A DNA stretch of 64,000 nucleotides, taken from contig OX597829.1 of NCBI GenBank assembly GCA_951406725.2, positions 51,274,001-51,338,000 of the forward strand, written 5' to 3'. The DNA is from Octopus vulgaris. Lineage: Eukaryota. This document shows positions 36,657 to 60,782 of the stretch, one piece after another. Made by a program: the position numbers and the translations under genes. Every line of letters starts with the position of its first letter. The first letter of the stretch is position 1. The notes under the pieces are model-generated. The model saw nothing but the letters and a program-made list of their open reading frames with translations. It had not been told where the DNA came from and made no database searches.

Positions 36657-36899
36657 ATGTTTATGTGTGTGAGCTTGTTTCCCTTTATGTGTCTGAGGAG
36701 AGGGAAAGTGTTCATGTCAGTCACGTCCAATTAATATATTGTAATCTCTCTCTCTCACTTACTCACTCTGACTCTCTCTCTCTCTCTCTCTCTCACTTAC
36801 TCACTCTGACTCTCTCTCTCTCTCTCACTTACTCACTCTAACTCTCTCTCTCTCTCTCTTACTCACTCTGACTCTCTCTCTCTCACTTACTCACTCTAA

Positions 36900-36930
<31 letters not shown>

Positions 36931-37281
36931 TCTCTCTCTCTCTTTCTCTCTCTCACTTACTCACTCTGACTCTCTCTCTCTCTCTCTTACTCACTCTAAC
37001 TCTCTCTCTTACTCACTCTCTCTCTCTCACTTACTCACTCTGACTCTCTCTCTCTCTCACTCTACTCTCTCTCACTCTCACTTACTCACTCTCTCTCTCT
37101 CTCTCTCTCTTACTCACTCTGACTCTCTCTCACTTACTCACTCACTCTAACTCTCTCTCTCTCTCTCACTTACTCACTCTGACTCTCTCTCACTTACTCA
37201 CTCTGACTCTCTCTCTCTCTCTCTCTCACTTATTCACTCTCTCTCTCTCTCTCTCACTCACTCTGATTCTCTCTCTCTCTC
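36592..37281. repeat. (CT)n microsatellite with ctcacttactcactctga higher-order unit
   Basis: Seen directly. Confidence 0.9.
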
Positions 37282-43511: not shown

Positions 43512-43741
43512 GGAGTAAACACATAAATGTGAAACAAGGTGGAAAAAAGAGTACTCAAATACCAGTGGTAGAGTAATATGCTTTATTTAAAGCAGCAGAA
43601 AATTCAACAAAACCAGTTACTCTGAGTTTCCCGTTGCCATTCATCGGACAGTTTTTGCTATCTAGCAAAAACTGTCCGATGAACGGCAACGGGAAACTCA
43701 GAGTAACAGGTTTTGTTGAATTTTCTGCTGCTTTAAATAAA

Positions 43742-43742
<1 letters not shown>
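43510..43742. mobile_element. Penelope-like fold-back element in (TA)n (80-bp arms plus about 70-bp tail)
   Basis: Arms 43581-43660 and 43663-43742; TA flanks; hammerhead motif in each arm; relatives at 44585-44818 and 60617-60782. Confidence 0.72.
43666..43715 (+). ncRNA. Minimal type-I hammerhead ribozyme-like motif (CCGAUGA core variant)
   Basis: caaaaactgt-CCGATGA-acg gcaa cgg-GAAAC-tcaga-GTA-acaggttttg: stem I closes, short stem II, palindromic ACTC-A-GAGT stem III. Confidence 0.6.
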
Positions 43743-44532: not shown

Positions 44533-44583
<51 letters not shown>

Positions 44584-44584
44584 T

Positions 44585-44818
44585 ACTTTATTAAAAAGCT
44601 GCAAAAATATCACAAATATTGTTACTCAGTTTCACGTTTCCATTCATTGGACAGTTTTTAGAATCAAAACAAAACTGTCCAATGAACAGGAACGTGAAAC
44701 TCTGAGTAACAGTTTTTGTGATATTTTTGCAGCTTTATAATAAAGTATACTACCCTACTTTTGGTATTCGAGTATTAAGTTTTCCACTTTGTTTCACATG
44801 TATATGCTTACTCTGGTA
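44585..44818. mobile_element. Diverged copy of the Penelope-like fold-back element, opposite orientation
   Basis: Inverted arms; aaaactgt-CCAATGA-acaggaacgt-GAAAC-tctga-GTA-acagtttt at 44671-44717; tail homologous to 43510-43580. Confidence 0.68.
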
Positions 44819-53060: not shown

Positions 53061-53755
53061 TATATGTCCATAACTTGTCATTGCTCAACTGCCAACGATC
53101 TGCTCAACCATATAGAATATATAATGGATTCTATTGGTGTTACTACTTAGTCAAAGTATTCACATGATCCAATCTGACCAATGGTGATGCAAATATTCTC
53201 ACCTAGAAGCCATTTTAAAATTTCTTTTAGATTATCTTCTGTCTGCCTCCATAAATTTAATATGGAATATATTTTGAGTCTATGAAACTTTGACTAATTT
53301 GGAGGTATGAAATAAAACTACAACTAAATGTAAAGTGCTACATTCACATGTCACCTTCTCATATGTGTATGCAAGCATGTATATATGTATATGTATGTAT
53401 ACACTCTTAGAGTGGTTGGCGTGTTAGGAAGGGCATCCAGCCATAGAAGCTGAGCCAAATCAGACTGGAGCCTTGCATAGCTCTCTGGCTCATCAGCTCC
53501 AGTCAAATCATCTAACCCATGCCAGCATGGAAAATAGACACTAAATGATGATGATGATATGAGTGTGTGTGGGCGTAGGAGAGGCTGTGTGGTAAGTAGC
53601 TTGCTTACCAACCACACGGTTCCGGGTTCAGTCCCACTGCATGGCACCTTAGGCAAGTGTCTTCTACTTTAGCCTCGGGCTAACCAAAGCCTTGTTAGTG
53701 GATTTGGTAGATGGAAACTGAAAGAATCCCGTCGTGTGTGTGTATATATATATAT

Positions 53756-54000
53756 TATTGATAAAAACGGTAACACAACAGAAGAATGAAAGAGACATCA
53801 ATATTATGTAAATAGAGGAATTTATCTGCAAATATAAATATATGTGACAATTATTCGGTAGCCATGATAAAACTCTGAGTTTCGGATGCCGAGGTGGAAA
53901 TCCACGCCACCATCTCTTCAGTTATCTGGCCATCACGGCATCCGAAACTTGCAGTTTTATCATGGCTACCGAATAATTGTCACACATTACATTTACAGAT
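53756..54000. mobile_element. Second Penelope-like fold-back family inserted in (TA)n
   Basis: Imperfect arms at about 53824-53891 and 53936-54000, plus a left tail; contains a hammerhead motif. Confidence 0.65.
53861..53930 (-). ncRNA. Type-I hammerhead ribozyme-like motif
   Basis: Minus strand: gccagataa-CTGAAGA-gatg...catc c-GAAAC-tcaga-GTT-ttatcatggc; canonical CUGANGA/GAAA/UH core with paired stem I. Confidence 0.68.
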
Positions 54001-54729
54001 ATATATGTGTGTGTGTGTATGTTTGTGTGTCTGTGTTTGTCCCCCCAACATTGCTTGACAACTGATGCTAGTGTGTTTAAGTCCCCCGTAACTTAGCGGT
54101 TCGGCAAAATTGACCGATAGAATAAGTACTAGGCTTACAAAGAATAAGTCCTAGGGTGAATTTGCTCAACTAAAGGCTGTGCTCCAGCATGTCCATAGTG
54201 TGTGTATGTATTTTCATATATTTATATATATAAATGTATTCGTAATAACAAAGGGTAAAATTAATTAAGAAGTAATCAATAATTTCACCAAGTAGAATTT
54301 GACATGAAAAAAGGACTATTTCACAGTAAACTTAAGTAGCTTGAACCCTAATTATTAAGTATATGTATTCATAGATAGATATAGCATTCTGTATATCTTA
54401 CTTCACATGCATATACTGTTGAAAGTCACAAAACTGCAGTATTTATCTTGAGAAACTATTCTGTATTAATGTATAGTGCTAAAAAGCACAGAAGTGTATC
54501 AGTGGCAGATGAAAGGTGACCAAATCACTAAATAGGTGGTGAATTGGGTGAAAATTTCTTATTAGTGATAGAAGTATTAGTTTAAAATAGCAATCTGTAT
54601 ATCATACTTAACATAGATATACAACTGTACAAAGCCACACAACTGTAATATTCATCTCAAGAAAGCATCTTGATGCATAGTACTGAAAGCACCGTGTGAT
54701 ATCAGTAGCAAATATATATGTAAGTGTGT

Positions 54730-59030: not shown

Positions 59031-60616
59031 ATATACATATATACATGTATGTATATACGTTTATACATGTATGTATATATATATACACACCATAGTAATT
59101 AGCTGTTCAAACAGACAATGATAGGAATATACACGTTATGCTTGATTGTGAATTTATATCTTAGTCTTGTTTATTTGGGTTATCATTCATTCTTGTGAAG
59201 TGGAAAGTGTCTTTGAGGCCCACTTTGGTATTGTGGTATTGTTTGGTTTTTCTTCATAAGGCTACAATGCTTAGATATTGGTGTCCAGTTTTGGGAAGTT
59301 CTCTGGCATTGGTGCAAGTGTGTGAAACATTTCTGAATACTGTCCACTACATGAAATCACAACTGGTCTTTTTACAAATCTTTATTAAATTCAATGCCAC
59401 CACCCTGCATAAAAAAAACAAACAAACAAACATATCAAAATGAAAAAAATAACAAAACAAACAATAACAATCTTTGTTAAAATATTTCTTTATTTCTCCC
59501 ATGATCCCCTGCTCTAGTATGCTGATGACAAACATACTAGTATCAGCATCCAAGGCACTAAGTGTGTTGCAGACCAAAAATGTACAGTTTAGAGGAGGAG
59601 GAGAGGAGAGGAGAGAGAGAAAAAATTTTTTTTATATTATACATATATACATATATATATATAATAAAAGCAACAGTAAAAATGATAGACTACAAACCCA
59701 ACAGAACGTGAACAATATTTTTCTTGATTGAGTCATATCAGTATGAAATGAAAAATGAACAGAAAAAAAAAAAACAAGAAAAAAAGATTCAATCTCTTCC
59801 TCTCTCTCCTAAACAAAGCAACACTTGTTTACATCAGTAATAAATAGAATCATTTGTATTTATATATATATATATATGTGTGTATATATATATATATGTA
59901 TTTGTATTTATGTACTGTCATCCACATATGGATAATCATTTACTCTTATCTAGTTCAGTAATCCTGCTTAATACAGCAGTATTGGGTTGTTGTTGGTTTT
60001 TTTTTTTTTTTTTGTTATTAAAAAAAAAAAAAAAAAAAAATCACAATACATTTACCGGTGTTTGAAAATTTTATATTATCATATATAGGTTTAACATTTT
60101 ACATAAATTTTTTAAAATAATTTTTTTCCACCCTTCTTTTTGATAAACTAAAAATTCAATAACTTTCAATTGAAAGAAGAAAAAAAAAAAAGTCCCAAAT
60201 GCTATAATTTCAAATAAAATACTTGCAATTATAATAATAACAAAAAGAAACAAGATTACTTTAATATTTAACGAAGATTTTGCAAGTTCTTCTTTATCTG
60301 CCCTACTATATACTAACTATGTAGAACCCAAATTATTTCAGAATGTAAAAAGAAAACTAGCAGCAGAAATCATAGTGTTGGTGTTGGTGGTGGTGAGGCA
60401 GTGAAGGAGGCTTTGCAGCGTTGCTTAATCTGCTCATAACAACAACCAAATCTTTCTCTACAAACTTTACATATCAGATGAATATGAGCCAATAAAGAAG
60501 TCTTTATATGTTCTTCTTTGACTTGCTAAAAACTAGCAGCCAAATCTCCTTCAAAGTTCAACCTTTACTTAAAAATTAGATAAATCTGTTATTATATATA
60601 TATATATATATATATA

Positions 60617-60782
60617 CTTTATTTAAAGCAGCAGAAAATTCAACAAAACCTGGCAACGGGAAACTCAGAGTAACAGGTTTTGTTGAATTTTCTGCTGCTT
60701 TAAATAAAGCATATTACTCTACCACTGGTATTTGAGTACTCTTTTTTCCACCTTGTTTCATATTTATGTGTTTACTCTGGTA
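60617..60782. mobile_element. Penelope-like fold-back copy with deleted hairpin centre, in (TA)n
   Basis: Near-identical to 43510-43742 (reverse orientation) but lacks the central segment. Confidence 0.72.

Follow-up and report, generated by a model that had tools for sequence, protein, structure and literature searches.

In a stretch of 64,000 nucleotides of the Octopus vulgaris genome (contig OX597829.1, positions 51,274,001 to 51,338,000 of the forward strand), hereafter the window, a fold-back insertion of 246 bp interrupts a SINE within its TA tract, as an earlier note made from the letters of this DNA had stated. The 5' half of this SINE covers 53572-53733 and its 3' half about 54002-54200; where the same SINE stands uninterrupted elsewhere in the window, it carries a short TA tract at the insertion point. 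The arms of the fold-back are 58 nt long and 90% complementary. On the minus strand, positions 53861-53930 show the predicted layout of a type I hammerhead ribozyme, whose letters were checked in the window; the inverted arm (53936..54001) has no tail, is without the CUGA core and carries a mutated palindrome. We refer to the family of this hammerhead as family 2 and to the 43.6-kb family of the same window as family 1. The insertion and its surroundings are composed as follows.

53572..53733, plus strand: 5' half of the host SINE, with a tRNA-like head by eye and no tRNA gene called
53734..53755, no strand: (GT)n/(TA)n tract of the SINE, from the sequence, flanking the insertion on the left
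53756..53822, minus strand: tail of about 67 nt separating two alternative 3' ends; it continues into the ORF 5' UTR in partial-tandem copies
53823..53860, minus strand: spacer from the ribozyme to end site 1
53861..53870, minus strand: 3' strand of stem I, with one bulged A
53871..53873, minus strand: GUU triplet, predicted to be cut between 53871 and 53870
53872..53880, minus strand: palindromic stem III of the ACTC-N-GAGT type
53881..53883, minus strand: core G12 A13 A14
53884..53914, minus strand: stem II, with 11 pairs, two mismatches and a bulged C
53915..53921, minus strand: core CUGAAGA
53922..53930, minus strand: 5' strand of stem I
53931..53935, minus strand: 5' terminus of the sense copy, which is truncated and starts within the 5'-end hot zone of family 2
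53935/53936: head-to-head junction
53936..54001, plus strand: inverted copy of the same element, more deeply truncated at its 5' side and stopping at end site 1
54002..54200, plus strand: remaining TA/GT tract and 3' half of the SINE

The CTGAAGA core, the stems, the GAAAC and the GTT site that the earlier note had read on the minus strand are all in place, letter by letter. The extended stem II is likewise present with 31 nt, but it departs from a perfect helix by the bulged C beside the core and the two mismatches; this single bulge sits after the first pair. As an isolated 70-mer the motif is predicted to form stems I and II at -22.6 kcal/mol (z -2.9), with 3 of 200 shuffles folding equally well. 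A type I descriptor matched the window only once, at this motif, and none of 200 shuffles, while an initial pattern with a longer stem III gave 0 matches, and an Rfam scan at E<=1 returned no hammerhead at the motif, its matches being microsatellite-driven miRNA only. The family 2 hammerhead has the core CUGANGA, the GAA, the pair A15.1-U16.1 and an H17 other than G, together with stems I and II, G10.1-C11.1 and a short palindromic stem III, and 94% of the alignment cells are paired.

Family 2 is abundant in the genome. A genome search gave 3,062 first-look candidates, 40 of which were scored, and exact matches to two 25-mers numbered 2,069 and 2,143 (controls 0), which are lower bounds for arms and not for loci. 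The counts given below come from samples that were all collected with exact-match patterns in the initial part of contig C1. Sample 1 comprises 86 of 90 rows, leaving out L156, the second arm of L155, and the duplicates L169, L170 and L180; sample 2, which overlaps it, comprises 82 loci with second arms merged and the last two listed places left out. For family 1, the first 100 places in a list of 5,462 supplied 63 loci. Element ends are BLAST ends, so that an error of a few bases is possible. In contigs of four public sequencing runs, family 2 was seen in several organisms, where strand, starts and ends are not readable.

Upstream searches in four steps led from the ribozyme through a 3' UTR of about 1 kb with an internal TA tract into an ORF with an RT followed by a C-terminal GIY-YIG endonuclease, pieced together across overlapping broken copies, none of which was intact among those read. 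Two partial tandems (L121 and L130) give the order ribozyme/pLTR, tail, 5' UTR and ORF start, and it follows that the minus strand of the window is the sense strand. The RWK motif stands near the N-terminus in L130, with RWE instead in L121; DKT replaces DKG in many copies, and a CxCX5C linker and a CxxC were found in the translations. A CCHH motif was not found in the endonuclease in the translations inspected, and a Pfam scan of two ORF pieces returned 0 families. These motifs and the linkage of genomic copies to the ORF match family 2, as far as sequence tells, to the Hydra clade of Penelope-like elements (PLEs), and the same linkage backs the earlier proposal of a distinct hammerhead-bearing Penelope-like family. 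Two further candidates were rejected: the sequence upstream of L024, which is unique flank and not ORF, and a PLE ORF abutting the 5' end of L046, which is Neptune-like, of the CCHH type by eye, and not family 2. Other PLE-like insertions lie in internal or flanking TA tracts of family 2 copies (L033, L039, L187, L199) and form nested stacks. The open end of a Neptune-like PLE ORF (L051:6345-8027) carries its own CCGAAGA hammerhead-like motif and, in this single case, meets a family 2 copy head to head at the internal TA boundary, which is either a nested insertion or a two-family fold-back. At L134 and L141-L144, an ORF-start copy has its 5' end exactly at end site 1, beside (GATA)n, an arrangement multiplied by segmental duplication.

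The closest known systems are found in the Hydra clade as described by Craig et al. (2021, PMC8557442). According to the parts of that paper available to us, its members share with family 2 the C-terminal GIY-YIG, RWK, DKT and CxCX5C motifs and the lack of CCHH, insertion into (TA)n, a type I hammerhead close to the 3' end, and the inverted 5'-truncated copy with a one-sided tail; Hydra-1_oBim has the same CUGAAGAG core, and Hydra-2_aMil, Hydra-1/2_aJap, Penelope-3_HM and Penelope-16_HM have the same ACTC-N-GAGT stem III. Differences are that the family 2 unit, assembled from the coordinates of L121 and L113, measures about 3.3 kb against 'generally <3 kb', which is a tendency, that its tail has about 67 nt against 30-40 bp, that its stem II has 31 nt, and that the CxH, which with CxxC is a 'possible' motif flanking the conserved E and N, is mostly CxY (CxY in 15 of 22 copies, CxH in 2). 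The identity to Hydra-1_Obim is about 62% (67 of 108 residues, counted by eye), and that element has other stems I, II and III (PMC8557442). Because the ribozyme differs, family 2 is, on sequence grounds, a sister family of Hydra-1_Obim and not Hydra-1_Obim itself.

The minimal PLE hammerheads of Cervera and de la Pena (2014, PMC4209133), again from part of the paper, are similar in being of type I with a long helix II and G10.1-C11.1, in a short palindromic helix III for which activity as a dimer is expected, and in occurring mostly as solitary truncated copies with some opposite-strand pairs. Unlike in them, the extra base of family 2 belongs to the 3' strand of stem II and does not lie between A9 and 10.1, and stem I of family 2 is extendable to about 10 pairs. 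PAc, a Poseidon element of the green anole (Frangieh et al. 2024, PMC11167929), resembles family 2 in the two RT start sites that define the tail and in an AT-rich target at which both strands are extended, with no sign of ends at the cut site; it belongs to another clade, and its ORF starts in stem II, whereas that of family 2 begins 104 nt beyond the tail. The portions of the PAc paper at hand make no mention of a coupling of the two sites within one insertion or of a pile-up of 5' ends.

How far the ribozyme is conserved was examined in 39 arms picked by their upstream sequence. The majority letter accounts for 85-100% at each core position, which is no higher than in the flanks, and within the subfamily covariation was no better than in shuffles (98 of 500); both are as expected for dead copies. 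A third subfamily, C (L320-L335), first met in contigs of the public runs and also present there in contigs of other organisms, occupies 16 places in the genome and combines a CUGACGA core and a GUC cut site with altered stems. When subfamily C is compared with subfamily A, the core is kept, differing solely at the free positions N7 and H17, and stem II shows one two-sided change and one pair that is broken in all 10 C rows. The pattern used to choose the C rows fixes stem II, and the between-subfamily signal amounts to one or two historical events. This comparison lends modest backing to selection on the ribozyme.

Folding in context gives a different picture from folding of the ribozyme alone. 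The pairing probability of stem I falls from 0.87-1.0 for the isolated ribozyme to 0.0 in the whole insertion, and since the inverted arm pairs over the motif, the ribozyme of the window copy is predicted to be buried and inactive. For one long copy folded within its native 3' UTR, stem I is likewise missing from the prediction, which agrees with the protein-assisted ribozyme described for PAc (PMC11167929, seen in part). For the family 2 hammerhead, cleavage is predicted only in a homodimer or when assisted by the protein of the element.

The ends of the inserted copies bear on how they were made. At the 3' side, family 2 copies terminate at either of two sites 67 nt apart, and family 1 also has two 3' end sites, at a distance of 65-68 nt. 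Within a fold-back the choice is almost strictly complementary: exactly one arm is tailed in 49 of 52 family 2 fold-backs of sample 1, in 47 of 47 of the overlapping sample 2 and in 36 of 39 family 1 fold-backs. In the part of the literature on the Hydra clade that was available, the tail is described as present 'often' or 'optionally' at one end, with a length of 30-40 bp (PMC8557442). At the 5' side, 31 of the 47 family 2 arms that reach a 30-nt zone upstream of stem I end there. The stop rate in this zone is about 0.31 per 10 nt, compared with 0.07 downstream (p 3e-10), and it also differs from the upstream rate (p 1e-5); in family 1, 26 of 44 arms end within a 20-nt zone upstream of stem I (p 6e-9). 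The 5' end of the window copy falls inside the hot zone of family 2. Among the 12 ORF-start copies with a pLTR that reaches the zone, 7 begin in an 11-nt span of it and the other 5, with long pLTRs, begin far upstream. No cluster of 5' ends is seen at the predicted cut site, where 3 of 82 family 2 ends lie within 3 nt and 2 of 63 family 1 ends fall in the 10-nt bin. The 5'-end pile-up and the counted one-tail rule were not found in the literature, in a search outside which most subscription papers lay.

Taken together, the pile-up ahead of stem I, its absence at the cut site and the one-tail rule likely mean that the template is uncut RNA which starts at the edge of the ribozyme, and that copying begins at two coupled sites. 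The tail, the inverted copy, (TA)n targets and hammerheads are known for the Hydra clade (PMC8557442), and for PAc it has been described that the tail reflects two RT start sites, that both strands are nicked, and that the ribozyme is protein-assisted and dispensable for insertion in vitro (PMC11167929); Penelope has a promoter within the pLTR (PMC2377424; all three sources seen in part). We therefore consider it very probable that the insertion in the window is a fold-back left over from the 3' end of a Hydra-clade PLE with a type I hammerhead, likely generated when the enzyme of the element cut a TA repeat and copied uncut RNA onto both DNA ends. In such a process, the RT-endonuclease would nick both strands of (TA)n, one DNA end would prime synthesis at site 1, its counterpart at site 2, and both cDNAs would be extended towards the 5' end of the RNA, just ahead of the ribozyme, or would halt earlier; this RNA 5' end would likely be a transcription start in the pLTR, and the two cDNAs would finally be joined head to head. 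A more specific version, which we put forward tentatively and hold to be possible but somewhat doubtful, is that the RNA of Hydra-clade PLEs starts at the front edge of the hammerhead and is copied uncut, that one enzyme dimer, using the two fixed sites of a single RNA that are separated by 67 nt, primes both ends of the TA break, which would force the single tail, and that selection maintains the ribozyme for some step other than the making of the template.

The 5' ends could alternatively pile up because the RT pauses, or because ends are joined by microhomology, at T-rich or palindromic letters, in which case the zone would not mark an RNA start. The hot zone of family 2 is indeed T-rich and spans 30 nt, a short palindrome lies inside the zone of family 1, fold-back junctions often overlap by 1-4 nt, and self-priming has been invoked for palindromes at inverted junctions (PMC3846280, seen in part). 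However, the RT stops after passing the structure and not ahead of it, other upstream T-rich stretches show few stops (2 in 61 arm-steps), and the same stop zone is found in single copies joined straight to the flank and in full-length copies, so we think that this explanation deserves attention but is rather unlikely. That the insertion stems from a non-autonomous retrozyme or a SINE-like element instead of the end of an autonomous PLE might be suggested by the majority of copies, which are shorter than 250 nt and contain no ORF, but the copies grade continuously into the 1-kb 3' UTR and the PLE ORF, and the tandem arrays of non-coding hammerhead monomers that characterize a non-LTR retrozyme are absent from the loci read, which makes such an origin very improbable. 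The 3' end is followed by a TA repeat in 66 of 86 family 2 copies and by any microsatellite in 78 of 86, and the insertion target of family 2 is (TA)n. The earlier note had seen the TA tracts inside SINEs as landing pads, and besides the window copy up to 8 of 86 copies do lie at the inner edge of a SINE; yet SINE-internal tracts make up 23 of 185 TA tracts in the flanks and the window, so that there is no excess (Fisher p 0.54), and 4 of 63 family 1 copies lie at a SINE. A preference for SINE-internal tracts hence seems highly unlikely, and the host SINE is an incidental target.

The earlier note had further proposed that several independent families share one stem III palindrome, which might allow heterodimeric cleavage. 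Family 1 is also of the Hydra type, with its own ribozyme 1.3-1.5 kb downstream in 10 of 15 loci picked by the endonuclease end and with 37% protein identity to family 2; it gave 5,462 exact 25-mer matches, near-identical young copies among them. The arms and tails of the two families are unlike, as had been noted: their 3' ends share only a 12-nt piece of GAAAC and palindrome, and the best other match has E 0.08. The families are, however, not independent, as both carry Hydra-clade ORFs and the palindrome is on record across the clade, an ACTC-N-GAGT stem III being listed for five elements of coral, sea cucumber and Hydra (PMC8557442, File S2, seen in part). The palindrome common to both families is real in the window copy but does not represent family 2 as a whole, whose majority loop is TCGGA (middle base G, 52 of 86 copies); TCAGA, with A in the middle, is the state of a subfamily (34 of 86) and is joined in 29 of these 34 by a second variant. 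As this variant is missing from the window copy and its inverted arm is nearer to the loop-G form, the exact match of the window palindrome to family 1 likely arose by CpG decay.

Further observations concern family 1 and the window. Its fold-backs in the window, at 43513-43742, 44583-44815 and 60612-60779, have one tailed arm each. A young subfamily of family 1 (43672-43678, L235-L249), abundant and 96-100% alike, has mostly CCGAUGA (U4 to C) and a stem II of 2 pairs with a mismatch at its base, and it may be spreading despite a weak ribozyme. At 36765-37268 of the window there is a tandem array in which a 9-mer similar to the stem III palindrome recurs on the minus strand.

In a dimer of type I hammerheads, the strand with the cut site is supplied by the partner. 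From this topology we infer that stem I must pair across the families in a heterodimer, and this pairing fails: the first 5 positions give 1 or 2 pairs across families, with the core-proximal pair lost, against 4-5 within a family, and the best stem I duplex reaches -0.9 to -3.7 across families against -7.5 to -10.9 within. The 9-nt palindromes themselves are predicted to pair across families as they do within them (-7.4 to -7.8 kcal/mol), and one family 2 subfamily natively has the 9-mer of family 1. Both a palindromic stem III and activity as dimers have been described for PLE ribozymes (PMC4209133 and PMC6765202, both seen in part). The same palindrome, however, recurs in unrelated hosts, and BLAST screens showed no head-to-head arms of family 1 and family 2, with matches lying apart or, by their coordinates, nested in TA tracts. 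Mutual cleavage of the two hammerheads as heterodimers through the common stem III is therefore extremely unlikely.

Family 2 is new within a known clade, and every one of its structural features is of a known kind: earlier publications, also on the Hydra clade, already describe PLE hammerheads, their palindromic stem III, TA targeting, and copies that are inverted or tailed. What is added are counts that bear on the role of the PLE hammerhead and on the origin of inverted insertions, namely that the inserted copies show no trace of cut RNA, that the one-tail rule is nearly strict, and that an RNA start can be predicted. If the tentative scheme with an RNA start at the front edge of the hammerhead is true, the thousands of short copies would constitute a genomic map of the PLE transcription start.
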